From Gemmatimonadota bacterium (GTDB taxonomy: Bacteria; Gemmatimonadota; Gemmatimonadetes; Longimicrobiales; Gaopeijiaceae), in contig RFGQ01000297.1 of assembly GCA_003695865.1 (NCBI GenBank), positions 1-27,688 on the forward strand: a DNA stretch of 27,688 nt. Direction: 5' to 3'. The notes under the pieces are model-generated. The model did not search any database. It was given only the letters and a program-made list of their open reading frames with translations, and was not told the DNA's origin. Every line of letters begins with the position of its first letter. The stretch's first letter is position 1. This document shows positions 1-11,564 of this stretch, piece by piece. Position numbers and translations under genes: made by a program.

Positions 1-2
1 AC

Positions 3-137
3 GGAGCCGACCTGCGCGAGGCGCTGGCGCCCGAGCGCCTGGCCGCGGCCGTGGCCCGCCGCCTCGACGCCGCCGACGCCGAAGAGGCGGGTGCCTGGAT
101 CGACGCGGCGGTGCGGGCCCTGGCGGGCGCCCGATGA
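3..137 (+). CDS. 3' end of an upstream CDS (5'-truncated by the window), product unknown
   Basis: Frame 3 is open from the window start (GADLREALAPERLAAAVARRLDAADAEEAGAWIDAAVRALAGAR*) with GC3-rich codons and TGA at 135-137. Too short to assign. An SbcD-like partner is possible from context only. Confidence 0.55.
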   Translation, partial: GADLREALAPERLAAAVARRLDAADAEEAGAWIDAAVRALAGAR

Positions 138-160
138 CGACGAGAAAGGCCTAGGAGCGT

Positions 161-1501
161 TTGACACTGACGTCGCTGCAGACGGTTTCGGGCGTGCTGC
201 CCGAGCCACTGGCGCTCGAGACCGGCTTCTCGGCGCTGGTCGTGCCGAGCGGACGCCTGCGCCGCGAACTGGGGCTGGCGCTGCGCCAGGACCTGCTGGC
301 GCACGACGACGCCGTGGCGGCGGCGATCGCTTCGCTGCGTGGATCGCCCGCGGAGCAGTTGACGGGGGGCGCGGCGATCCTGGCCCGGGTGCTCGGACTA
401 GACCAGGTCGAGCGCGACCTGCGTGCCGAGAAGGACGGGTCCGCCGATGCCGCGCCCTCGCCGGCGGGCGACCTCGGCGCCCGGTTGGCCGAACTGGAAC
501 CTGTGCCCATGCGGCTCTCCGAACTCGAGGAACGCTTGCGCGATCTTCGGGCCGACGCGGTCGAGGTCGCGGGCGACCTCGAGGTCGAGAACATGGAGTG
601 GCTGCGCCAGCGGCAGGATGCCGAGACGCATCTACAGGCATACCGCGACCGGGCGCGGGAGCTCAAGGGACGCCTCGGTGAGCTCCGCGCACGCGGTGCC
701 GAGTCGACCTGCCCCACGTGCGGCCGGGAGCTCGAGGGGCTGCTCGACACCGTCGTGAAGCAGCTCGAGGAAGAGTGGGAGTCGGTCGTGCAGGACGGCC
801 GCTGGTGGAAGCGCCGGCGAGAGCAGCTCGAACTCAAGCCTGAGAAGCTGCGTTCGCTCGAGGGGCGCTCGATCCGACTACAGGCCGAAATCGAGCGCCT
901 CACCGAAGAGGTGGAGCGCCTGCGCGGGCAGCAGAGCGAACTCCTCGAAGTACGCCGTCGCATGGCCGAAGCGGACGTGCCGCCCGAGCCGTCCACTCCG
1001 CACGGACGTGCACTGCGGGCGCTCGAGGACGAGATCCGGGACGAGGCCCGGGAGCTGCTGCTCACTCGGCTGAGTCGCGCACTGAACCGGCTTTCGGCAG
1101 GCCGCGTGCTCGGCGTGGTGGACGACGCGGATGCGCGGCCGCGCCTCGTGCTCGACGAGGGAGCCCAGGAGCCCGCATCGGACGACGAATGCGCGATGTT
1201 CGGGCTGGGGCTTCGCCTCGCGCTGGCCGATCTCGTCACGCGGCGTGGCGCGGCGCCCGGTACGCTCGTGTTGGGCGAGGACTTCGACCGGCTGCCGCAC
1301 GACGCGCGCATCCGCGCCATCGTGCTCATGCGTGCGCTGTCGCGCCGGGTGCCTCAGATCCTGCTCTTCTGCCCGGGCGAAGTGGCGGGGCTGGTGCCCG
1401 AGTCGTTCGACCGCGTCATCGAGATCCGCGAGCGGGAAGGCGGAGGCGCGGTCGTCGTCCGCACCGTTCGCACGGGCCTGGGCAGAATCCAGGTGCACTG
1501 A
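161..1501 (+). CDS. Degenerate SbcC/Rad50-like coiled-coil protein with intact CxxC zinc hook and inactivated ABC-ATPase head
   Basis: Central CPTC hook (nt 710-721) flanked by coiled coil. The C-terminal lobe keeps SbcC order and spacing: SDDE..LGLRLAL at the signature (SGGE..LALRLAL), LVLGEDFDRLP at Walker B/D-loop (LILDE.FGSLD), LLFCP at the H-loop (ILITH). The N-terminal GFSALVVPSGRLRR sits at the Walker A position. The TTG start is uncertain. Confidence 0.75.
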   Translation: MTLTSLQTVSGVLPEPLALETGFSALVVPSGRLRRELGLALRQDLLAHDDAVAAAIASLRGSPAEQLTGGAAILARVLGLDQVERDLRAEKDGSADAAPSPAGDLGARLAELEPVPMRLSELEERLRDLRADAVEVAGDLEVENMEWLRQRQDAETHLQAYRDRARELKGRLGELRARGAESTCPTCGRELEGLLDTVVKQLEEEWESVVQDGRWWKRRREQLELKPEKLRSLEGRSIRLQAEIERLTEEVERLRGQQSELLEVRRRMAEADVPPEPSTPHGRALRALEDEIRDEARELLLTRLSRALNRLSAGRVLGVVDDADARPRLVLDEGAQEPASDDECAMFGLGLRLALADLVTRRGAAPGTLVLGEDFDRLPHDARIRAIVLMRALSRRVPQILLFCPGEVAGLVPESFDRVIEIREREGGGAVVVRTVRTGLGRIQVH

Positions 1502-1517
1502 GAGGCGCGGGCCGCCT

Positions 1518-3785
1518 TCAACGCCCCAGCGTCTGCCAGGCCAGCAGTCGCTCTCGCCACCGGGCGAACGAGGCGGCGTCGCCGCCCTCCAACGCCGCCT
1601 GCGTGAGGGCGGCGTAGGCCCACGCGTAGTAGTTCGGGATGCCGGCCGAGGGGCGATCCGGCCAGAAGGCCCACGCGTCGGGGATGCCGCCACGGTGCAC
1701 GAACACGCGGTCCACGAGCGTAGCGGTACGCCCCACGTCGACCCGGCGCCCCGTGACCGGCGCCACCCGGTCGTCGGCGACGCGGTGGACTCCGGGGAGC
1801 GAGTCCACTCCGGCGCCCACGAGCCGGTACGCGAGGCCCTGACGCACGACCTGGTCCTCGAGTCCCAGCGTATGCAGCGCCGTGCCGCTCGACGCGAAGT
1901 AGACGGGCCGGTCGCCGAGCGACCGGGCGATGATCGCCATGGCGAGCTGGTGCCAGGGGAGCACGATCATGTCGGCGGGCAGGTTCGCGCGCGCGGCTCC
2001 AAGGTTGATCGAGCGCGCCCGGTCGAGCCTGAAGTACCCCTCGGGGCTCGTCACGCCGTCGATGGTCGCGTCGTCGAGGTCGAGCACGGGCCCGGAGGGG
2101 GCGCGGATCGGTTGTGGTAGTTCGATCAACACCCGCGTCGGGTCGGCGGGCGTGCCGGGCGCAACGTAGGCGGCCGGGCCGCGCGACGGGTCGTACGGGC
2201 GCTGGCAGACGATCCGTGTGGGCGTCGAGTCGGGGTCCTCGCCGGGACCGCAGGGACGGCTGAGGTCGCGAATCTGCCGGGCGTACCAGGGCGTGTTGAG
2301 GTACGACGTCACCACCACGATCACGTCCCGGCGTAGTCCCTCGACCTCCTGCAGATACCAGAGCGGAAACGTGTCGTTGTCGCCGTTGGTGAAGAGCACC
2401 CCGTAGGGTTCGACGCTCATGAGCAGGTTGTAGGCCCAGTCGCGCGCGGCGTAGTCGCCGCTCCGCTCCGCCCACGGCGCGTTGAGCACGCCCGGCACCA
2501 GGGCCACCAGCAGGACCGGCGCCGCGGCGCGCGTCGAGCGGAGGCGGGCCGCCAGTCGCTGCCAGAGGGCGCAGAGTCCCACGCCGGCCCACAGGCCGAA
2601 CACCGAGAACCCGATCAGGAAGAAATAGTCTCGCTCTCGCACCTCGTTGAGCGTGCGGTCGTTGCCCGGCGTCGCGAACGAGTAGCCGTACTTGAAGTTC
2701 AGGTAGACGACGAGGCCCGCGGTGAGGGTGGCGAGCAGAACGATCCCATAGAGGGCGGCCTGCCGGTCGTGCCGCGCCACCGCCGCGAGGCCGACCGCGC
2801 AGAGCATCAGAAAGAGCAGCGTGAACGGCAGCCGGCCGAGGGCCAGGAGGGGGTTCTCGCCCTGCACCGAGCGGCTCCACTGCCAGTCGAGGTACTGAAC
2901 GAAGTTGGCGACCTGCATCGTGAGGGGCGCCTGGCGGGGCAGCAGGGGCGGCTTGTCGTACTGCTCACGCCGCAGCGCCGCAGACAGGTCGTCGCACCCG
3001 GCCTGCCCCCAGGTGGCCACGCTGAGCATGGCGGCGGCGGTCGACTCGCACGTGGGTTCGGCCTCGTTGATCGTGGGGTGAAGGGCCGAGCGCAGCGGCA
3101 GAAAAAGGTGGACCGAAAGCCCCACCAGTACCGCGAGGACGCCCCACCCGTAGAGCCGCGGCCTCAGCAGGCTCGCCGGCCGAACGGTGAACACGAACAC
3201 GGCGAGCGCGGGCGCCGCGAGGAACGCCATCAGGTGGTTGCCGACCGAGAGCGCGAGGATGAAGGCGACCAGCACGAGCAGCCGGTCGCCGCCGCCGCTG
3301 CGCACGCCCGCCCGCCAACGCAGCGCCAGCCAGGTGAGCAGCGCGACGGTGAAGAGCGAGACCGTGTAGACCTTCTCGTTCACGTTCGACTGGTTCCACA
3401 CGGTGAACGCGGTCGCGCTGATCACGACCGCCGCGGCGGCTCCGAGCAGGCGTTGGCGCCGCTCGGAGACGACACCGCCCAGCAGTTCGTGCACCACGAG
3501 GAACCAGAGCCCGTGCGCCGCGGCGCTCATCGCGGCGCTGAACAGGTTGATGCGCACGGCCACGGGCAGGCCGAGAGGGGCGAGCAGCAGCTCCCAGGTG
3601 CGGCCCAGCAGTACGAAGAGCGGATTCCCGGGCGGGTGGGGAATGCCCAGGATGTGGCTGGTGGCGATGTACTCGCTGGTGTCCCAGAACGCGGTCGTGG
3701 GCGCGAGCGTCGAGGCGTAGAGCGCGAAGACGGCGGCCGTGGCCCCTGCGGCCCAGGCGTAGGGAGGGCGTGGCGCCCCGGTCAC
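1518..3785 (-). CDS. DUF2723 (TMEM260-like) multi-pass membrane GT-C glycosyltransferase
   Basis: Motifs TTAFWDTSEY, LGIPHPPGNPLFVLLG, VNEKVY and NGDNDTFPLWYLQEVEG..RDV, about 10 hydrophobic segments, and a soluble C-terminal domain. Start placed at GTG 3785, which overlaps the upstream stop (GTGA); the track start at 3821 is probably too long. Confidence 0.88.
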   Translation of the reverse strand: MTGAPRPPYAWAAGATAAVFALYASTLAPTTAFWDTSEYIATSHILGIPHPPGNPLFVLLGRTWELLLAPLGLPVAVRINLFSAAMSAAAHGLWFLVVHELLGGVVSERRQRLLGAAAAVVISATAFTVWNQSNVNEKVYTVSLFTVALLTWLALRWRAGVRSGGGDRLLVLVAFILALSVGNHLMAFLAAPALAVFVFTVRPASLLRPRLYGWGVLAVLVGLSVHLFLPLRSALHPTINEAEPTCESTAAAMLSVATWGQAGCDDLSAALRREQYDKPPLLPRQAPLTMQVANFVQYLDWQWSRSVQGENPLLALGRLPFTLLFLMLCAVGLAAVARHDRQAALYGIVLLATLTAGLVVYLNFKYGYSFATPGNDRTLNEVRERDYFFLIGFSVFGLWAGVGLCALWQRLAARLRSTRAAAPVLLVALVPGVLNAPWAERSGDYAARDWAYNLLMSVEPYGVLFTNGDNDTFPLWYLQEVEGLRRDVIVVVTSYLNTPWYARQIRDLSRPCGPGEDPDSTPTRIVCQRPYDPSRGPAAYVAPGTPADPTRVLIELPQPIRAPSGPVLDLDDATIDGVTSPEGYFRLDRARSINLGAARANLPADMIVLPWHQLAMAIIARSLGDRPVYFASSGTALHTLGLEDQVVRQGLAYRLVGAGVDSLPGVHRVADDRVAPVTGRRVDVGRTATLVDRVFVHRGGIPDAWAFWPDRPSAGIPNYYAWAYAALTQAALEGGDAASFARWRERLLAWQTLGR

Positions 3786-5782
3786 GGCCCCGTGCTCGGA
3801 TGCAGGTGCAGCACGCCCCACTCATCCACCCGCGCCCGCCAGCCGCTGGGCACCCAGGTGGTGGCGCTGTACTCGAGCACGAGAGTGGGCCCCTCGAGTT
3901 CGTGGCCGGCGCGCAGGTCGCGTCGCCAGACCCGCGCGGCCTCGACCTCCTGCCCACGTTCCACCAGACGCCACGGCTCGAGCCGGGGCGGCCCCTCGGC
4001 CGGGTCCAGCCGTCGCGGCTCCACGTGGGCGCCGGGCGCGGCGGCGGCCACGCGCAGCGTGACGGCTTCCGGCGCGCGTTCCGGATAGGCGTAGCCGTAG
4101 CGGGCGCGGTGGGCCTGGTGAAAGGCGTTGCGCCAATCGGGTGCGGCGGGCACGCGCAGCTCAAAGCTCTGCCCGGGGTAGCGCGCGTCCACTTCGCGCT
4201 GGAGGGTGAGCACGTCGCGCGCCGCGCCCTCGGCCACGAGCGCCTCGGCCGCCGCCGCGTCCAGCTCTTCGAAGGCCGCCGCGATGCGCTCGTCCGCGTC
4301 GGGCGCCGCACCGCTCACCAGCACCGTTCGCGACGCCTCGCGGACGACGTCGGCCGAGAGGATTCCGTACGCGGACAGCGTTCCCGGATCGGGCGGCACG
4401 AGGGCGCCGCGTGCGCCCAGTCGCTCGGCGAGCCCCGCCACGTGAAGCGCGCCGGCGCCGCCGAAGGCCACCACCATGAAGTCGGCCGGATCGTGGCCCC
4501 GTTCGACCGAGATCACCCGAAGGGCGCGCTCCATGGCGGTGTCGGCCACCGCGAGCACGCCCTCGGCGGCCTCCTCGAGCGAGGTGCCGAGCGCCTCGGC
4601 GAGCTCGGCGAGCGGCCCCTCGACGGCGTCGCGGTCGAGCGTGCCCTCGCCCCCCAGGAAGGCGTCGGTGGGCAGGCGACGCAGCCACACGTGTGCGTCG
4701 GTCACCGTCAGACCGGTCCCGCCACGCCCGTAGCAGATCGGGCCGGGGTCGGCCCCGGCCGAGCGGGGCCCCACGCGCAGCGCGCCGCCGGGATCCACGC
4801 GGGCGAGGCTGCCGCCGCCCGCGCCCACCGTGTGGATGTCGACCACCGGCAACGCCACGGGCTGGCCCCCGATGCGGAACTCGCGGGTGCGCAGCGGCCG
4901 GCCCGGACAGAGCGAGACGTCGGTGGAGGTGCCGCCCATGTCGAACGTGATCACCCGCTCCCATCCCGCGCGGCGCGCCCATGCGAGCGCGCCTACCACC
5001 CCGCCCGCGGGCCCCGACAGCACCGTGTGCGCGGGCTCGGCCACGGCCCGCTCGACGGAGAGCGCGCCCCCGTTCGAGCCCATGATGCGCACGCGCTCGG
5101 CGCCCGATTCCCGGGCGATGCGACCGAGGTAGCGCGACATGACGGGCGCCACGTACGCGTTCACGACCGTCGTGGAGGCGCGCTCGTATTCGCGGTACTC
5201 GGGCAGCAGGGCAGACGACAGCGACACGGGCACGGCGAGGTCGGCGAGGGCGTCGCCGACCGCGCGCTCGTGGTCGGGGTTCGCGTAGGCGTGCAGCAGC
5301 ACGACCGCCACGGACTCGGCGTCGCGGACGCGGTCGGCGAGGTCGGCCAGCTCACCGGGGTCGAGCGGCTCGACCTCTTCGCCGTCGGGGCCCAGGCGGC
5401 CGGCGATGCCGATGCGGTCGCCGCGGGCCACGAGGGGTGGGGGGCGGTGGCCGACGAGCGCGTAGAGCTGTGGCCGGTCCTGGCGGCCGATCTCGATCAC
5501 GTCTTCGAAGCCGCGGTTGGTGACCAGGGCCACCCGGGCGCCGCGCCGCTCGAGCAGGGCGTTCGTGGCCACGGTCGAACCGTGCAGCAGCAGGAACGCG
5601 GCACCCTCCTCCACGAAGCTTCGCACCCCCTCGAGCACGGCGTCGGCGGGATCGGCGGGCGTCGAGGGGACTTTCAGGACGTGCAGCCCGCCCTCGTCGT
5701 CGAGGTGGAGCACGTCGGTGAACGTGCCCCCCGTGTCGACGGCCAGGATTCGCGTCGTCTTCCGGTCGGCGTTCTGCGGCAT
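3782..5782 (-). CDS. Hydantoinase/5-oxoprolinase family protein, A (ATP-binding) subunit
   Basis: VDTGGTFTD, HGSTVATNALLER, FDMGGTSTDVS, VDIHTVGAGGGS and VAFGGAGALH motifs; 666 aa. Confidence 0.93.
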   Translation of the reverse strand: MPQNADRKTTRILAVDTGGTFTDVLHLDDEGGLHVLKVPSTPADPADAVLEGVRSFVEEGAAFLLLHGSTVATNALLERRGARVALVTNRGFEDVIEIGRQDRPQLYALVGHRPPPLVARGDRIGIAGRLGPDGEEVEPLDPGELADLADRVRDAESVAVVLLHAYANPDHERAVGDALADLAVPVSLSSALLPEYREYERASTTVVNAYVAPVMSRYLGRIARESGAERVRIMGSNGGALSVERAVAEPAHTVLSGPAGGVVGALAWARRAGWERVITFDMGGTSTDVSLCPGRPLRTREFRIGGQPVALPVVDIHTVGAGGGSLARVDPGGALRVGPRSAGADPGPICYGRGGTGLTVTDAHVWLRRLPTDAFLGGEGTLDRDAVEGPLAELAEALGTSLEEAAEGVLAVADTAMERALRVISVERGHDPADFMVVAFGGAGALHVAGLAERLGARGALVPPDPGTLSAYGILSADVVREASRTVLVSGAAPDADERIAAAFEELDAAAAEALVAEGAARDVLTLQREVDARYPGQSFELRVPAAPDWRNAFHQAHRARYGYAYPERAPEAVTLRVAAAAPGAHVEPRRLDPAEGPPRLEPWRLVERGQEVEAARVWRRDLRAGHELEGPTLVLEYSATTWVPSGWRARVDEWGVLHLHPSTGP

Positions 5783-5824
5783 ATGTTGGTGCGTTCCCGA
5801 TCCACGTCCGATTCCGAGGGACGC

Positions 5825-7327
5825 ATGGAGCTACACCCTTCCTTCGACGCATTCAAGGGGGCGGCGGCCGGCGCCGGGGTCGTGCCCGTGTGGCGCGAGA
5901 TCCTGTTCGACGTCGACACCGCCGTGACGGCGTACGCCAAGATCGCGCGTCCGCCCTTCGGCTTCCTGCTCGAGTCGGTCGTCGGGGGAGAGCAGTGGGC
6001 GCGCTACACCTTTCTGGGGAGCGAGCCCTCGGGTGCGTGGCGCCTGAAGGACGGTGCCGTCGAGTGGTGGACGCCCGAGGGCGGATGGGCCGCCGTCGAG
6101 ACCGACGACCCTCTGGCCGACTTCGACCGGCGACTGCGCGAACGGGCGCCCGTCGCCGACTCCGGACTGCCCAGGCTCTGGGGCGGTGCGGTGGGGTTCT
6201 TCGGTTACGACGTGGTGCGCCACATCGAACGCCTGGGCGAGGGGCCGAGCGACGACCTCGGGCTTCCCGACGGGCTGTTCCTCTTCGTCGACACGGTGCT
6301 CGCCATCGACAACCTGCTGGGTCGCGCGATGGCCATCTCGAGCGTGCCCGTCGAGCCGGGCCTCGACGAAGCGGAGTTGCGCGCGCGCTACGAGGCCGCG
6401 GCGGAGCGGACGGCCGAACTCGTGCGTCGGCTGGAGGAGGGTGCGTCTCCCCCGCCACTCACGCTGACGGCCGAGCCCGACGAAGACCCGCCGTTCACGA
6501 GCTCGACGAGCCGCGAGGCGTTCGAGGCCGCGGTCGAGCGGGTGCGCGAGTACATCCTGGCGGGCGACGCCTTCCAGGTGGTGCTCAGCCAGCGCCTCGG
6601 CATGCCGCTCGAGGCGTCGCCGTTCGACCTCTATCGCGCCCTGCGCTCCCTCAACCCGTCGCCCTATCTGTACTTTCTGGAGCTCGACGGACTGACGCTG
6701 GTGGGATCGTCACCCGAAGTGCTCGTGCGCCTGGAAGACGATGTGGTCACGGTGCGGCCCATCGCGGGGACGCGCCCGCGCGGCGCCACGCCCGAAGAGG
6801 ACCGGGCCCTGGCCGACGACCTGAAGGCCGACGAGAAGGAGCTCGCCGAACACCGCATGCTCGTGGACCTCGGCCGCAACGACGTGGGGCGCGTGGCCGA
6901 GTACGGGAGCGTGCACGTGCCCGACCTGATGGTCATCGAGCGCTACTCGCACGTCATGCACCTGGTGAGTCAGGTCGAAGGGCGGCTGCGCCGCGGGCTC
7001 GGAGCGGTGGACGTGTTCCGTGCCTGTTTCCCAGCGGGCACGGTCTCGGGAGCCCCCAAGGTGCGCGCGATGGAGATCATCGACGAGCTCGAACCGGTGC
7101 GCAGGGGGCCCTACGCGGGAGCCGTCGGGCATTTCGGGTGGGGCGGTCGTTCCATGGACACGGCCATCACGATCCGCACGGTCGTCGTGACCGAGGGCCG
7201 CGCCTACGTGCAGGCCGGCGCCGGGGTGGTCGCCGACTCGGACCCGGCCCGCGAGTACGACGAGACGCTCAACAAGGCGCGGGCCCTGCTCAGGGCCGGC
7301 GCCATGGTCGGGCGCGGGTCCCGCTGA
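5825..7327 (+). CDS. trpE: Anthranilate synthase component I
   Basis: FLLESV, NPSPY, VGSSPE, RPIAGTRPRG, KELAEHRMLVDLGRND, FPAGTVSGAPKVRAM and QAGAGVVADS. Real start is ATG 5825 after GAGGG; the 1185-aa track ORF is an artefactual 5' extension antisense to the hydantoinase. A PabB-type paralogue cannot be fully excluded. Confidence 0.88.
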   Translation: MELHPSFDAFKGAAAGAGVVPVWREILFDVDTAVTAYAKIARPPFGFLLESVVGGEQWARYTFLGSEPSGAWRLKDGAVEWWTPEGGWAAVETDDPLADFDRRLRERAPVADSGLPRLWGGAVGFFGYDVVRHIERLGEGPSDDLGLPDGLFLFVDTVLAIDNLLGRAMAISSVPVEPGLDEAELRARYEAAAERTAELVRRLEEGASPPPLTLTAEPDEDPPFTSSTSREAFEAAVERVREYILAGDAFQVVLSQRLGMPLEASPFDLYRALRSLNPSPYLYFLELDGLTLVGSSPEVLVRLEDDVVTVRPIAGTRPRGATPEEDRALADDLKADEKELAEHRMLVDLGRNDVGRVAEYGSVHVPDLMVIERYSHVMHLVSQVEGRLRRGLGAVDVFRACFPAGTVSGAPKVRAMEIIDELEPVRRGPYAGAVGHFGWGGRSMDTAITIRTVVVTEGRAYVQAGAGVVADSDPAREYDETLNKARALLRAGAMVGRGSR

Positions 7328-7412: not shown

Positions 7413-9578
7413 CTATCCTGCCGCCCGCAGTGCTTCCACGTGACGGAGTAGCTCGGACCGCGGAACGCGTGAGAAGCGAAGATCGCCCGTCGAGTCGACG
7501 ATGAAATAGGTCGGAGTCTCCCAACTCCGGAAGGCGTTGTTCACGGCACCGCCCTGGTCGAAGTAAAGGGGTAGGTCGGCATAGCCTTGTCGGCGCAGGT
7601 AGGGGGCGGCGTCCGAGTCGACGGGATCCGCGCTGACGACGACGAGGGGGACCCCCGTGTCTTCGAGTCTCCTTCCCAGCTCGCGCAGCGCAGGCAATTC
7701 CTCGAGGGAGTATCCACAGTAGCGCGACCAGAAAGCGATCACGGCGACCTTTTCTCCGACCAGTTCGCGGAGGCGTGCATGCGTGGAGCCATCCATGGCG
7801 ACCAGGTCGAGAGGGCCGTGCAGGACAGTGCGCTCGGCGAGAGCGTTCGTGTGGCTGATCATCTCGCGTCGCGCCCGGCGGACCTGCACTGCCCAGGCGT
7901 CCGGTCCGAGATACTGCCGCACGGCGTGGATCAGACGGGTCTGCTCCGGGCCGGGCGGCAGGGGATCCGCCGCAAGTCGAGCCACCGGCTCGGCGGCCGT
8001 CACCGTGTCGCCGGCGGAGAGCAGGACCTCGGCGGCCGATGCGAAGACATCTCGATCCCAGACCATCTTCGATGCGAGGAGTAGCGTATCAGCGGCGGCG
8101 GACACTCTACCTGCTGCGAACAGCGCTCTTCCCAGCAGCGCGAGCGTGTGTCCGCGCTCCTCCTGCATGACCCTGGCGAACCGGGATCGGGGGACATCGA
8201 GCGGTCGCGTGGCGTCGTCCGGCGCATGTTCGAGGTCCTCTCGCAACGCGTCCATCGCGCGCGGGGCCCACTCCGGGCGGTCGAGGAGCGTCCGTATCGC
8301 GAGGTCTCGCGTTTCGGGACTCTGTAGGAGCCGAACCGTCCAGCGCGAGACGAGTTCGCTCACCCCCGTTCGCTGGGCCAGTATCAACGCCTGCTGGCCG
8401 ACCACCGGCAAGCGTGACTCGGGTGTCTTCCACATCACCTCGAGCGAATCCAGAGCACGCATCGGTTGGTCCTTCCAGTATAGGCCGAAGATGGTGGCCA
8501 TCCGCTCCTGCACGGCGCGGCGCTCGTTGGGCGCCTCCTTCACCAGCCGACCACGCCAGTACTCGAAGCGGAGCGAATCTCCCACGCCCTGGGCGTACAG
8601 CGTGAGCCCTCGCAGCACCCTTTCCGGCAGCGTGGTCCGGGCCTCATAGCGCACGTGGAGGTCGGCGAACCGCTCGCGGTGACGCGCGAGGAGGGCTTCT
8701 CTCTCCTCGGGAGTGCTGAGCGCGTCTGCGAAGAAGAGGACACTCGACCAGGCGAGCGGGTCGCGAGGGAACAGTTCCGTAGCCCTCAGAGCGGCCTGAT
8801 GGGCTCGGGGGAAGTGGGTCGGTGCCCATTCGGCCTGTTCTGCGTCGAGCGCAGGCAGACCCGGCTTGCTTCCGTCTTCCGAGACCCGCAGGTCCCAGAG
8901 CCTTCCATTGTTGGTATCGATCCGCTCTCCGGTCGTATCCTCGACCGCGAACACACCGTAGGCTGCCTGGGCGGGGAGTTCGAAGCGACCCACGTATACC
9001 CCGTCCCGTCTCGGACGCAGGAGCGCCCATTGTTCGTTGCGGTCCGCCGGGATGCTCGCTCCGCGGATCCTCCCCCGCAGTCGGACTTCGCGGTCTCCGA
9101 CCAGGTGTCCGGCGGGTCGGTAGTGTACTTCGACGACCGTGCCCGCCAGCGGATGGGTCGGCGAGAAGCTGAGAGTGCCCACGCTGGCTGCTGCCGCCGC
9201 CCGGTCCCGCTGAGTTAGGACCAGACCGACCATCGCAAGTGCCAGAGCCACTCCCACCGGGGTGATGATGGCGCTCAAACGCCTGCGGGAGGACGTGTCG
9301 GCCGGCGAGCCCTGAGGCGCATGCACGGCCTGAGGCATGACGACGATGTCTCCCGCACGAAGCCGATCCAGGACGCGGGTGCGGAGCCCGCGCGGGAGCG
9401 CCGGCGGCGGGGTGCTCCGGGCCATCTCGTCGACCTGACGAATCTGACCGAGGGTCCGCCTGCAGCGATCGCACGACATGAGGTGTCGGCTCACCCGGGC
9501 CCGAACCTCTCCGCTCAGCTGGTCGTCCGCGTATTCGGTGAGACGGGAGAAAGACGGGTGAAAGATCGGTCGCCACAT
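7413..9578 (-). CDS. Fusion protein: zinc-binding anti-sigma (ZAS/zf-HC2) domain, one TM helix, beta-sandwich, helical repeats, and a C-terminal TlpA/redoxin-like domain with CxxS
   Basis: H7-x24-H32-x3-C36-x2-C39 at the N-terminus; TM IITPVGVALALAMVGLVL; C-terminal VAVIAFWSRYCGYSLEELPAL...WETPTYFIVDSTG matches the TlpA pattern FWAxWCxPC..E.P.L...P..F.ID..G. The start overlaps the sigma stop (TGATG). Confidence 0.82.
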   Translation of the reverse strand: MWRPIFHPSFSRLTEYADDQLSGEVRARVSRHLMSCDRCRRTLGQIRQVDEMARSTPPPALPRGLRTRVLDRLRAGDIVVMPQAVHAPQGSPADTSSRRRLSAIITPVGVALALAMVGLVLTQRDRAAAAASVGTLSFSPTHPLAGTVVEVHYRPAGHLVGDREVRLRGRIRGASIPADRNEQWALLRPRRDGVYVGRFELPAQAAYGVFAVEDTTGERIDTNNGRLWDLRVSEDGSKPGLPALDAEQAEWAPTHFPRAHQAALRATELFPRDPLAWSSVLFFADALSTPEEREALLARHRERFADLHVRYEARTTLPERVLRGLTLYAQGVGDSLRFEYWRGRLVKEAPNERRAVQERMATIFGLYWKDQPMRALDSLEVMWKTPESRLPVVGQQALILAQRTGVSELVSRWTVRLLQSPETRDLAIRTLLDRPEWAPRAMDALREDLEHAPDDATRPLDVPRSRFARVMQEERGHTLALLGRALFAAGRVSAAADTLLLASKMVWDRDVFASAAEVLLSAGDTVTAAEPVARLAADPLPPGPEQTRLIHAVRQYLGPDAWAVQVRRARREMISHTNALAERTVLHGPLDLVAMDGSTHARLRELVGEKVAVIAFWSRYCGYSLEELPALRELGRRLEDTGVPLVVVSADPVDSDAAPYLRRQGYADLPLYFDQGGAVNNAFRSWETPTYFIVDSTGDLRFSRVPRSELLRHVEALRAAG

Positions 9579-10105
9579 CAGAGTCGATCCTTGAGAAGGC
9601 GGCGCAGAGTCGTGCGGGCCCGACTCAAACGCGCCCGCGACGATGTAACCGAAATGCCCAGCAGTTGTGCGATCTCGTCGTGCGTATACCCCTCCAGCAC
9701 CTTGAGCACGAAGACGGTGCGATACCGGTCGGGGAGGGAGAGGACCGCGTCTTGAATGACGAGGTAGGTCTCGGATTGGGCGGGGGGTGCCGAGCGATCG
9801 ATGACCAGGCCGGTCCTACGAATCCGCATGCGTCGTCCGCGGCGGCGCAGCCGAGCGATGCAATCCCGGGCTGCCGTCGTGCGGAGCCAGCTCAGAAAGG
9901 CTCCTCGATGCGAGTAGGAACGAAGGGCTCTGGGAAGCGAAAGGAAGACATCCTGGACGACGTCTTCGGCCTCATCGGGGCTCGCCAACAGCCGCAGCGC
10001 CAGGGCGAATACCGCGGATGCGTACTCGTCGTAGAGTTGGCCCAGCGCATCGGCCGAGCCGCATCGTGCCTGTTCGATGATGGCGCAGAGCTCATCTGCG
10101 GGCAT
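9578..10105 (-). CDS. ECF (sigma-70 family) RNA polymerase sigma factor
   Basis: Region 2 DALGQLYDEY...AEDVVQDVFL...FLSWL; region 4 LPDRYRTVFVLKVLEGYTHDEIAQLLGIS..SSRARLSRAR. Start is ATG 10105 or GTG 10111. Confidence 0.92.
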   Translation of the reverse strand: MPADELCAIIEQARCGSADALGQLYDEYASAVFALALRLLASPDEAEDVVQDVFLSLPRALRSYSHRGAFLSWLRTTAARDCIARLRRRGRRMRIRRTGLVIDRSAPPAQSETYLVIQDAVLSLPDRYRTVFVLKVLEGYTHDEIAQLLGISVTSSRARLSRARTTLRRLLKDRL

Positions 10106-10157
10106 GCCCACAACGTCGACCCCGGCTCGAGGAACGCCACTTCCTTCGTTCCCAGAA

Positions 10158-10183
10158 TGTCACCAGGTGCTGCGAACGTGACA
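10158..10183. promoter_or_regulatory. Inverted repeat TGTCAC-N14-GTGACA upstream of the ECF sigma; possible operator or promoter element
   Basis: Direct reading: tgtcac at 10158-10163 and gtgaca at 10178-10183, about 50-80 nt upstream of the sigma start. Confidence 0.3.
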
Positions 10184-10199: not shown

Positions 10200-11564
10200 T
10201 CAGCCTCCCAGTTCGTCGTAGAGGGTGGCGATCGTCCGGATCCCCAGCTCGAACGCCTCCACCGCGAACCACTCGTTGGGCGCGTGCAGGTTGCAGCCGG
10301 GGTACGAGAACCCGATGAGCAGCGCCGGCGCTTCGAGTACGCGCTCGAACTCGCCGACGATGGGGATCGAGCCGCCTTCGCCCACGAGCACCGGGGGTCG
10401 TCCGAAGGCGCGTTCGAGCGCCCGGCGCGCCGCCTGTTCGAGACGTGCGTCGAGCCGGGCCCGCCACGGCCTGCCGCCGTGCAGCTCGTCGACGCGCACC
10501 CTCACACCGGGCGGCGTGACGCGCTCGACGTGGGCGCGGAACAGCTCGCCCACGCGCGCCGGGTCCTGGTCGGGCACCAGTCGGAAGCTGACCTTGGCCG
10601 TGGCCCGCGCGGGCAGCACGGTCTTGGCGCCTTCGCCGGTGTACCCCGAGAGCATGCCGTTGACGTCGCACGTGGGCCGGGACCAGCGCTTCTCGAGCGT
10701 GGAGTAGCCCTCCTCACCGCCCAGCGCCGTCACCCCGATCTCGCGCATGAACCCCTCCTCGTCGAAGGGCAGGCCGCGGATTTCCGCCCGCGTTTCTTCG
10801 TCCCACTCCACCACGTCGTCGTAGAAGCCCTCGATCGCGATGCGGCCGCGCTCGTCGTGCAGCGAGGCGACGATGCGGGCCAGGGCGTTCGCCGGGTTGA
10901 CCACCGGGCCCCCGTATACGCCCGAGTGCAGGTCCGCGTCGGGCCCCTGAACGTGCAACTCGAAGTACGCGAGCCCCCGCAGCGAGTAGAGGATGGACGG
11001 GATACCGGGAGCGAAGAGGCCGGAGTCGGAGATGACCACCGCATCGGCCGCCAGTCGCTCGCGGTTGGCCTCGACGAAGGGCACGAGGTTCGGCGAGCCG
11101 ATCTCCTCCTCACCTTCGGCGATCACCTTGACGTTGACCGGCAGTCGGCCGCGCGCCTTCAGGTGGGCTTCGATCGCCTTGACGTGCAGGTAGAGCTGTC
11201 CCTTGTCGTCGGCGGTGCCCCGGGCGTAGATACGGCCGTCGCGGATCACGGGCTCGAAGGGATCCGATTCCCACTCGTCCAGCGGCTCCACGGGTTGAAC
11301 GTCGTAGTGCCCGTAGACGAGCACGGTGGGTGCGTCGGGTCCGGCTCCGAGCCACTCCCCGTAGACGACCGGATGCCGCGGGGTCTCGCACACCTCGGCT
11401 TCGAGGCCCGCTTCGCGCATGCGCTCGACCAGCCACTCGGCGGCCCGGCGTGTGTCGGCGTCGTGCTCCGACTGGGCGCTGATCGAGGGGATGCGCAGGA
11501 AGTCGAACAGCTCCTCGCGGTAGCGGTCCAGATCGCGGTCGATCGTTGCGGCGACTTCACTCAT
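10200..11564 (-). CDS. M20/M25/M40 family metallo-dipeptidase (ArgE/DapE/CNDP-like)
   Basis: YGHYDVQP, RGTADDKGQ, EGEEEIGS, ISDS and HAPNE metal/catalytic motifs; 454 aa. Confidence 0.95.
   Translation of the reverse strand: MSEVAATIDRDLDRYREELFDFLRIPSISAQSEHDADTRRAAEWLVERMREAGLEAEVCETPRHPVVYGEWLGAGPDAPTVLVYGHYDVQPVEPLDEWESDPFEPVIRDGRIYARGTADDKGQLYLHVKAIEAHLKARGRLPVNVKVIAEGEEEIGSPNLVPFVEANRERLAADAVVISDSGLFAPGIPSILYSLRGLAYFELHVQGPDADLHSGVYGGPVVNPANALARIVASLHDERGRIAIEGFYDDVVEWDEETRAEIRGLPFDEEGFMREIGVTALGGEEGYSTLEKRWSRPTCDVNGMLSGYTGEGAKTVLPARATAKVSFRLVPDQDPARVGELFRAHVERVTPPGVRVRVDELHGGRPWRARLDARLEQAARRALERAFGRPPVLVGEGGSIPIVGEFERVLEAPALLIGFSYPGCNLHAPNEWFAVEAFELGIRTIATLYDELGG

Follow-up and report, generated by a model that had tools for sequence, protein, structure and literature searches.

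A Gemmatimonadota ECF sigma factor gene coupled to a gene for a membrane-spanning anti-sigma factor that ends in a degenerate TlpA-type thioredoxin fold

The window analysed here is a stretch of DNA of 27,688 nucleotides (nt) from a Gemmatimonadota bacterium (assembly GCA_003695865.1, contig RFGQ01000297.1), and its subject is a pair of genes on the reverse strand. The first gene encodes a sigma factor of the extracytoplasmic function (ECF) type. The second encodes its putative anti-sigma factor, a single polypeptide in which a zinc anti-sigma (ZAS) domain is joined through one transmembrane helix to a large periplasmic part that ends in a thioredoxin fold. The two genes and the features of the anti-sigma protein are as follows.

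9578..10111 (-): ECF (group 4) sigma factor gene, 177 amino acids (aa), regions 2 and 4 only
7413..9578 (-): anti-sigma factor gene, an uninterrupted open reading frame (ORF) of 721 aa plus stop, with full-length homologues conserved
9354..9578 (-): class I anti-sigma domain, cytoplasmic, residues 1-75, four helices (zf-HC2, profile matches, AlphaFold2)
9462..9560 (-): zinc-ligand motif H7...H32xxxC36xxC39 (translation, family conservation)
9213..9278 (-): single transmembrane helix, residues 101-122, after RRR (hydropathy)
8874..9179 (-): predicted periplasmic immunoglobulin (Ig)-like beta-sandwich, residues 134-235, including IDTNNGRLW (AlphaFold2)
7845..8858 (-): TPR-like alpha-solenoid, residues 241-578, about 20 helices (AlphaFold2, profile, Foldseek)
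7419..7826 (-): TlpA/ResA-type thioredoxin fold, residues 585-720 (Pfam, profile, Foldseek, VIA)
7707..7718 (-): half-site motif C621-G-Y-S624, with the nucleophilic Cys kept and the resolving Cys replaced by Ser
7512..7517 (-): T688-P689, the putative cis-Pro loop that is typical of oxidoreductases with a thioredoxin fold

The TGA of the sigma gene and the ATG of the anti-sigma gene overlap by 1 nt (TGATG), the A being common to both. The sigma protein matches Pfam Sigma70_r2 (E 3.7e-16) and Sigma70_r4_2 (E 5.8e-18) as well as the NCBIfam sigma70-ECF superfamily (TIGR02937, 92 bits against a cut-off of 42.9), and no specific equivalog was reached in the NCBIfam search. Its size and its content of regions 2 and 4 alone are those of ECF sigma factors, which have about 170-200 aa, and its nearest solved structure is SigW of Bacillus subtilis (5e-18). 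The coupling to a sigma gene, which had been claimed in a first-pass annotation of this DNA, recurs among the relatives: in 45 of 54 loci, the gene immediately upstream encodes an ECF sigma factor, and the other loci are contig ends or versions that lack the ZAS domain. The same arrangement is seen in L005, L006 and L063. The ZAS-less homologues begin with a signal-peptide-like segment (P0007) and have no adjacent sigma gene. The pair is a real sigma/anti-sigma feature of a Gemmatimonadota-type bacterium.

At the N-terminus of the anti-sigma protein, the putative zinc ligands are arranged as H7-x24-H32-x3-C36-x2-C39, and Pfam zf-HC2 matches residues 12-40 (E 2.3e-7). The ligands are kept in 136-137 of the 137 representatives that possess this domain. 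When the family profile was compared with anti-sigma domains of the PDB, the best match was ChrR (2q1z, residues 4-88; 1e-6), followed by DdvA (4e-5), RsiW (1e-4) and 3hug_B (2e-4), and the AlphaFold2 model places helices at residues 10-17, 23-35, 37-55 and 65-74. The ligands, the predicted four-helix fold with its profile matches and the neighbouring sigma gene together assign the domain to the class I anti-sigma domains (ASDI) of the ZAS subtype, which would bind zinc and the sigma factor. In three sigma-adjacent members of the family, the ligand positions read E/P/S (L009), E/F/S (L012) and E/F/C (L032) instead of H/C/C, which suggests zinc-free variants of the domain.

The protein has one strong hydrophobic segment, residues 101-122, with a Kyte-Doolittle value of 2.47 against 1.27 for the runner-up; the helix includes Pro and Gly. 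The topology is N-in and C-out, because this only helix follows RRR and because the ZAS-less homologues start like secreted proteins, and the C-terminus therefore lies outside the cytoplasm. A full-length AlphaFold2 model built with a 150-sequence alignment reached a mean predicted local distance difference test (pLDDT) score of 91.2 and a predicted template modelling (pTM) score of 0.83. In this model, cytoplasmic helices (10-74) are followed by a disordered linker (82-106), the transmembrane helix, a seven-strand sandwich (135-231), the solenoid (241-578) and the thioredoxin fold (591-720). Because the pTM is high, the model says that the three periplasmic domains form one rigid body. In the VIA fold search, no solved chain spans more than one domain of the protein. 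The whole protein contains only three Cys residues, C36, C39 and C621. The ZAS motif, the single helix, a helical repeat-like region of about 350 aa, which is here resolved as a TPR-like solenoid of about 340 aa, and the joining of an anti-sigma domain to an extracytoplasmic redoxin in one polypeptide had all been read in the first-pass annotation, and they are borne out, the fusion being conserved in the family.

The beta-sandwich gave a pLDDT of 93.8 when it was modelled alone, with IDTNNGRLW at residues 220-228. It has no Pfam match and no Foldseek match at E<=0.001. Its best VIA Z score is 9.6, and the top matches mix amylase N-terminal, macroglobulin, invasin, Ig and CBM21/56 domains (Z 7-9.6, 5-18% identity). 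On the model, it is a generic Ig/macroglobulin/CBM-like sandwich of no specific family. The earlier comparison of IDTNNGRLW with starch-binding CBM sandwiches goes no further than this generic likeness of fold; Pfam, Foldseek and VIA gave no support for an identity as a starch-binding CBM. For the solenoid, the family profile matches consensus TPR at residues 470-540, and Foldseek finds the superhelices of OGT, SPY and CTPR; the single-sequence Pfam match to TPR_19 has an E value of 0.72 only, which indicates that the repeats are divergent. Profile and predicted superhelix assign it to the TPR repeat proteins, and its residues W413, R416, R458, W507 and D538 are 98-99% conserved.

The C-terminal domain carries the putative active site in the segment FWSRYCGYSLEELP (residues 616-629), where CGYS occupies 621-624. 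The Pfam match to AhpC-TSA exceeds the gathering score at residues 599-702 (E 1.9e-11), those to Redoxin and Thioredoxin_8 stay below their cut-offs, and the NCBIfam search of the protein gave sub-threshold matches to ResA, TlpA and DsbE together with a sub-threshold anti-sigma match. At residues 583-700, the family profile matches 3kcm (1.7e-17), ResA (1e-13) and TlpA (3e-9) of the PDB. The VIA Z scores are 16.7 for Etrx2, 16.1 for ResA and 14.4 for TlpA, and the Foldseek TMt values are 0.72-0.79 for Etrx, ResA and DsbF. By sequence and model, the domain is a TlpA/ResA/CcmG-type thioredoxin fold with the TlpA-type insertions and a putative cis-Pro loop; of the 153 representatives, 142 keep the Pro of this loop and 114 its Thr. 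The thioredoxin-type C-terminus on which the first reading depended is borne out.

In the alignment with 3kcm, the family Cys takes the place of the first (nucleophilic) Cys of WCPPC, and Ser or Ala takes the place of the second, as had been proposed for the resolving Cys. The site reads YCGYS, and the WCxxC dithiol of the TlpA/ResA/CcmG reductases is absent. The surroundings are conserved as two frames, V-A-F-W-S-R-x-C-G-P-[AS]-L-x-x-L-P and W-G-T-P-x-Y-[FY]-V-L-D-x-x-G-R, the Ser-Arg pair preceding the active-site Cys among them. The domain is, in effect, a natural CGPS/CGPA 'trapping' variant.

The family was collected by an exhaustive homology search of 50% identity clusters at E<=1e-30, a word-index search having given 5 matches only. 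It comprises 376 representatives, most of which align across residues 5-718, and because the architecture is kept full-length in hundreds of clusters, its features are not due to chance. Across 153 representatives, the active site is CxxA in 57, CxxS in 55 and CxxC in 12, and 27 have no Cys; the single-Cys form CxxS/A is therefore the family norm (112/153). Among the ZAS-bearing CxxS/A members, the active-site Cys is the sole Cys outside the zinc site in 74 of 98. The closest orthologue (P0008, 43% identity, locus L063) has the same gene pair and an identical CGYS.

The relatives' loci were retrieved with a profile from a 5-sequence alignment. All but 3 of the 52 loci in species genomes come from metagenome-assembled genomes labelled Gemmatimonadota, the remainder being labelled 'uncultured bacterium' (2) and Halomonas (1), and a genome may hold up to 3 paralogues. 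The ESM Atlas clusters with both zf-HC2 and AhpC-TSA are likewise from Gemmatimonadota. When the phylum was sampled evenly, 11 of the 151 genomes proved to contain the ectodomain (residues 130-590), with 6 of 6 in one family and 1 of 16 in the family of the window, and the distribution is therefore patchy. Bacteroidota proteins of 590-650 aa resemble residues 133-721 in shape (TM 0.5-0.6 on the template modelling scale), so the ectodomain also occurs without the anti-sigma part.

The surroundings of the gene pair are as follows.

10157..10183 (-): TGTCAC-N16-GACAT, a candidate ECF promoter for autoregulation, about 45 nt before the sigma start and within the 88 nt that follow the peptidase gene
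10200-11564 (-): M20-type dipeptidase-like ORF, 5' of the sigma gene on the same strand, 88-nt gap
5800-7327 (+): anthranilate-synthase-component-I-like ORF, 3' of the anti-sigma gene and convergent, 86-nt gap

With the peptidase ORF upstream and a convergent ORF downstream, the sigma/anti-sigma unit is bicistronic. Neither flanking gene recurs beside the relatives' pairs, and a scan of the locus for sigma-70 promoters and terminators gave nothing useful. Upstream of the sigma gene, 28 of 45 relatives carry the motif TGTAA[CG].TT-N-GGCAT[CT], 55-75 nt before the start; one subgroup has ACGTTTC as its -10 element, and the closest orthologue (L063) has GTCAC-N15-GGCAT at the same offset as in the window. 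A weight matrix derived from 21 relatives, to which the window did not contribute, was run over the two strands of the whole genome (3.18 Mb) with a pre-filter that admitted only TA, TC or AA at two -35 positions. The top score in the genome, 19.8, is that of the site before the sigma gene, and the operon is probably autoregulated, as judged from this motif. The other 9 matches scoring at least 14 lie mostly inside long open frames. The second-best (17.8; contig C452, ~1786-1816) was rejected as a target, being at the 3' end of a TlpA gene and about 240 nt from the next start. In two relatives, a second copy of the motif, TGAAAG...GGCATCTA, points away from the sigma operon at about 150 nt from the sigma promoter (L038 2151-2181 (-) and L048 3222-3252 (-)), which suggests a divergent regulon gene in both.

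In 20 of 54 loci, the anti-sigma gene is adjoined by a gene for a TolB-like six-bladed propeller (PF15869). Ahead of the propeller gene stands a small gene whose product has a signal peptide and, in its mature part, many Cys residues (motif ACAxGxCC...C, 4-5 Cys), and this cassette of mini-protein and propeller stands next to the anti-sigma gene in L007, L008, L011, L020, L028, L029, L037, L038, L041, L042, L045, L051 and L054. Further copies of the promoter motif are located beside propeller cassettes in relatives; in L020, such a sigma-type motif lies ahead of the cassette (5296-5326 (-)). The numbers of loci in each class of active site are as follows.

Cxx[SA]: 4 loci with the cassette, 26 without
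CxxC: 7 loci with the cassette, 1 without
No Cys: 9 loci with the cassette, 0 without

This adjacency, read from gene order, ties the family to what appears to be envelope thiol chemistry. In the window's own genome, which is 88% complete, the PF15869 propeller was not found and a hidden Markov model of the Cys-rich peptide gave no match; the window holds the minimal two-gene, single-Cys form. The same genome contains, on another contig, a run of three genes (L004, G000:C452:1-3218). The first (2..355) encodes a small exported 3-Cys protein, the second (360..1901) a lipoprotein-like protein of 513 aa with an N-terminal part of 370 aa and a canonical WCGPC TlpA domain, and the third (1998..2684) a protein of 208-228 aa that resembles outer membrane proteins. 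The N-terminal part of this TlpA protein has no similarity to the relatives' propellers.

Starting from the established gene structure, domains, topology, family conservation, sigma coupling and promoter motif, we tentatively prefer the following mechanism, which we rate at a little under an even chance: the pair is a bicistronic ECF sigma/class I anti-sigma switch in which the degenerate TlpA domain serves, on the periplasmic side, as a thiol switch or trap. In the cytoplasm, the sigma factor would be held by a four-helix domain of the ChrR type that zinc stabilises. The role of the zinc would be structural, because its ligand pattern is that of ChrR and not that of the thiol-sensing RsrA. 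The single membrane pass would expose a rigid periplasmic sensor composed of the Ig-like sandwich, the TPR-like solenoid and the degenerate TlpA-type fold. C621, which has no resolving Cys, would not support autonomous reductase cycling; oxidation may instead turn it into a sulfenate, or it may be caught in a mixed disulfide with an oxidised protein of the envelope.

Such a thiol event, or the binding of a client in the groove of the solenoid or thioredoxin fold, would alter the ectodomain and lead to its clipping, after which a site-2 protease (M50) would probably free the sigma factor by regulated intramembrane proteolysis. This route of release is proposed because the genome contains three M50 site-2 protease genes and the transmembrane helix has Pro and Gly. 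The freed sigma factor would transcribe its own operon from TGTCAC-N16-GACAT, and DsbD-type reductant importers could reset the C621 site. A thiol trigger at C621 is favoured for four reasons: the nucleophilic Cys, the cis-Pro loop and the Ser-Arg pair are retained, the resolving Cys has been systematically removed, all relatives without the cassette keep the Cys, and DsbD-type transporters are present in the genome. Zinc binding, sigma binding, the thiol sensing, the proteolytic relay, the regulon and the nature of the sensed signal are the inferred part of this scheme.

Several observations weigh against this mechanism. Homologues without a conserved Cys would, according to the first-pass annotation, speak against a redox device; the Cys is present in most homologues and not in all, being only 82% conserved and missing from 27 of the 153 representatives. 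A tree from which the columns of the active site had been left out shows at least 8 losses of it. In contrast, conservation is highest away from the active site (R168, 100%; E213, D221, W228, W413 and R458, 99%; R416 and W507, 98%). Because the Cys was lost repeatedly while the rest of the module was conserved, thiol chemistry is not a universal mechanism of the family; and because residues of the sandwich and solenoid are 98-100% conserved, the family-wide core function is independent of the Cys and rests on this body, with the thioredoxin site as its variable end. The relation of site class to the cassette rests on 3 phylogenetically independent contrasts, all in the same direction (p 0.25), so that the tracking of cassette presence by site class is suggestive only. 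The -35 element of the window is TGTCAC against TGTAAC in the relatives, and its spacer is 1 nt longer. The promoter scan of the 88%-complete genome gave no convincing second target, and neither a partner nor a regulon member nor a site-1 protease came to light.

These observations lead to the main rival, a non-covalent ligand or client sensor with a dispensable Cys, which is possible and which we consider rather unlikely. Here the surface of the sandwich or solenoid would bind a periplasmic protein, a peptide or an envelope component, and the thioredoxin fold would be a pseudo-enzyme scaffold in which C621 is a relic or a modulator. The highly conserved residues outside the active site fit this explanation, as do the Cys-less members, which are common and have arisen repeatedly, and the fact that TPR solenoids are typically protein-binding modules. 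However, a dispensable Cys agrees poorly with its retention in four-fifths of the representatives and in the 26 cassette-less loci that resemble the window, and the conserved cis-Pro loop and Ser-Arg pair argue for a maintained active-site pocket.

A further reading is covalent capture, in which the anti-sigma factor would be a receptor whose natural CxxS 'trapping-mutant' site holds oxidised proteins of the envelope in a long-lived mixed disulfide and thereby frees the sigma factor. We hold this reading, too, to be on the unlikely side. In the relatives with the cassette, the captured partner could be the adjacent secreted Cys-rich mini-protein. If true, covalent capture would let the protein sense disulfide stress in the periplasm in a manner that has not been described for ECF systems.

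It is improbable that the protein is instead a working enzyme, that is, a membrane-tethered monothiol reductase or peroxidase that an external thiol or DsbD/CcdA recycles and whose anti-sigma domain mainly couples its own abundance to sigma activity. The AhpC-TSA match above the gathering score, the automatic public names 'peroxiredoxin' and 'TlpA family', the DsbD-type transporters and a Ser at position -3 from the Cys, comparable to the T/SxxC of peroxiredoxins, are consistent with an enzyme. The defining marks of peroxiredoxins are PxxxT/SxxC and a catalytic Arg, and the Pfam family in question (PF00578) also covers TlpA-like proteins. In the present family, 134 of 153 representatives have Val or Ile at position -7 and not Pro, and the place of the Arg is taken by the Thr-cis-Pro loop, so that a peroxiredoxin of the AhpC/TSA, BCP or Tpx type was rejected. 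Moreover, CxxS alone is unable to finish a reductase cycle, and the whole architecture is kept in the Cys-less relatives.

Still less probable is that the cytoplasmic zinc site itself is the redox sensor, as in RsrA or RshA, with the periplasmic part as an accessory. The HxxxCxxC motif is invariant, and there is a weak NCBIfam match to RsrA (30.9 bits against a cut-off of 62.5). However, the first ligand is His with the x24 spacing of ChrR, in which the zinc is structural, the best profile matches are ChrR, RsiW and DdvA and not RsrA, and a conserved ectodomain of 600 aa would be left unexplained.

The public gene call for the anti-sigma ORF (P0003) has 606 aa and begins at M116 within the transmembrane helix. 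As this call omits the zinc anti-sigma domain, the automatic annotation reads only a 'peroxiredoxin/TlpA' protein. The 721-aa reading is the correct one, because homologues align from residue 5, no internal stop is present and the start is coupled to the sigma gene. That a gene-calling artefact has joined two separate genes, one for the ZAS peptide and one for the periplasmic protein, is scarcely credible, for although the shorter public version exists, no stop separates the parts, the ATG overlaps the sigma stop, the ESM Atlas also contains the 721-aa form, and more than 100 homologue clusters align over residues 5-718.

ECF sigma/anti-sigma pairs are a major mode of bacterial signalling, and the sensed signal is known for few groups. 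The analysis adds a large, unstudied, Gemmatimonadota-restricted anti-sigma family with a confidently modelled three-domain sensor and amends a public gene call from which the anti-sigma domain is missing. The active site occurs in nature in the very form that biochemists engineer to trap thioredoxin substrates, and the CxxC, CxxS/A and Cys-less relatives offer a ready natural mutant series for asking whether periplasmic thiol chemistry can gate a sigma factor. The first-pass annotation did not recognise the architecture from characterised ECF groups. Among the papers searched, none reports a thioredoxin-like sensor on an anti-sigma factor, and no redoxin-type anti-sigma factor is mentioned in the text of the ECF reclassification paper.

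Compared with known systems, the pair is closest in plan to SigW-RsiW of Bacillus subtilis and RpoE-RseA of E. coli, in which an ECF sigma factor is held by a single-pass class I anti-sigma factor and released by regulated intramembrane proteolysis. It shares with them a ZAS-type anti-sigma domain, one transmembrane helix, a co-transcribed pair and an M50 protease in the genome, and the -35 element of the relatives is of the TGTAAC/TGAAAC type, as in those systems. Unlike RsiW and RseA, which have small, unrelated ectodomains, the present protein has an ectodomain of about 600 aa with three domains and a thioredoxin-fold end. The anti-sigma domain has the same H-x24-H-x3-C-x2-C motif as ChrR, the anti-sigma-E of Rhodobacter sphaeroides, which is also its best profile match. 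However, ChrR is soluble and senses through a C-terminal cupin in the cytoplasm, whereas the present protein spans the membrane and its sensor is periplasmic.

The C-terminal domain has the fold of the TlpA, ResA, CcmG and Etrx reductases (Z 14-16.7, TMt 0.72-0.79), with the Thr-cis-Pro loop and the FW...C...LP frame. It differs from them in that the resolving Cys is replaced (CGYS; CGP[AS] in the family), the Trp before the Cys is lost, and the domain follows a sandwich and a solenoid in a fusion with an anti-sigma domain. The CnoX/YbbN chaperedoxins combine thioredoxin and TPR domains and form mixed disulfides with clients through a single reactive Cys (PMC8129009, PMC10998233), and ERp44 and Eug1p are natural CxxS proteins of the thioredoxin fold (PMC2195995). 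The likeness to these proteins consists in a thioredoxin fold without the canonical CxxC and, for CnoX/YbbN, in the TPR repeats, and it serves as an analogy for a thiol trap only. CnoX is cytoplasmic, with the thioredoxin domain before the TPR and the reactive Cys outside its SQHC motif, whereas here the order is reversed and the domains are periplasmic. No CnoX chain is among the sequence or fold matches listed, and the protein is not a chaperedoxin of the CnoX/YbbN kind.

NrsF is reportedly a multi-pass DUF1109 protein with neither a thioredoxin fold nor a ZAS domain. What the NrsF-SigF pair of Caulobacter, whose anti-sigma factor has periplasmic cysteines (PMC3511200), has in common with the present proposal is the notion that cysteine chemistry lets an ECF anti-sigma factor monitor the periplasm. 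The locus represents a known kind of switch, similar to SigW-RsiW and RpoE-RseA with a ChrR-like anti-sigma domain, for which the mechanism proposed above is plausible but unproven. What is new is the sensor, a body of sandwich, solenoid and half-site TlpA fold that is without a solved or described counterpart.

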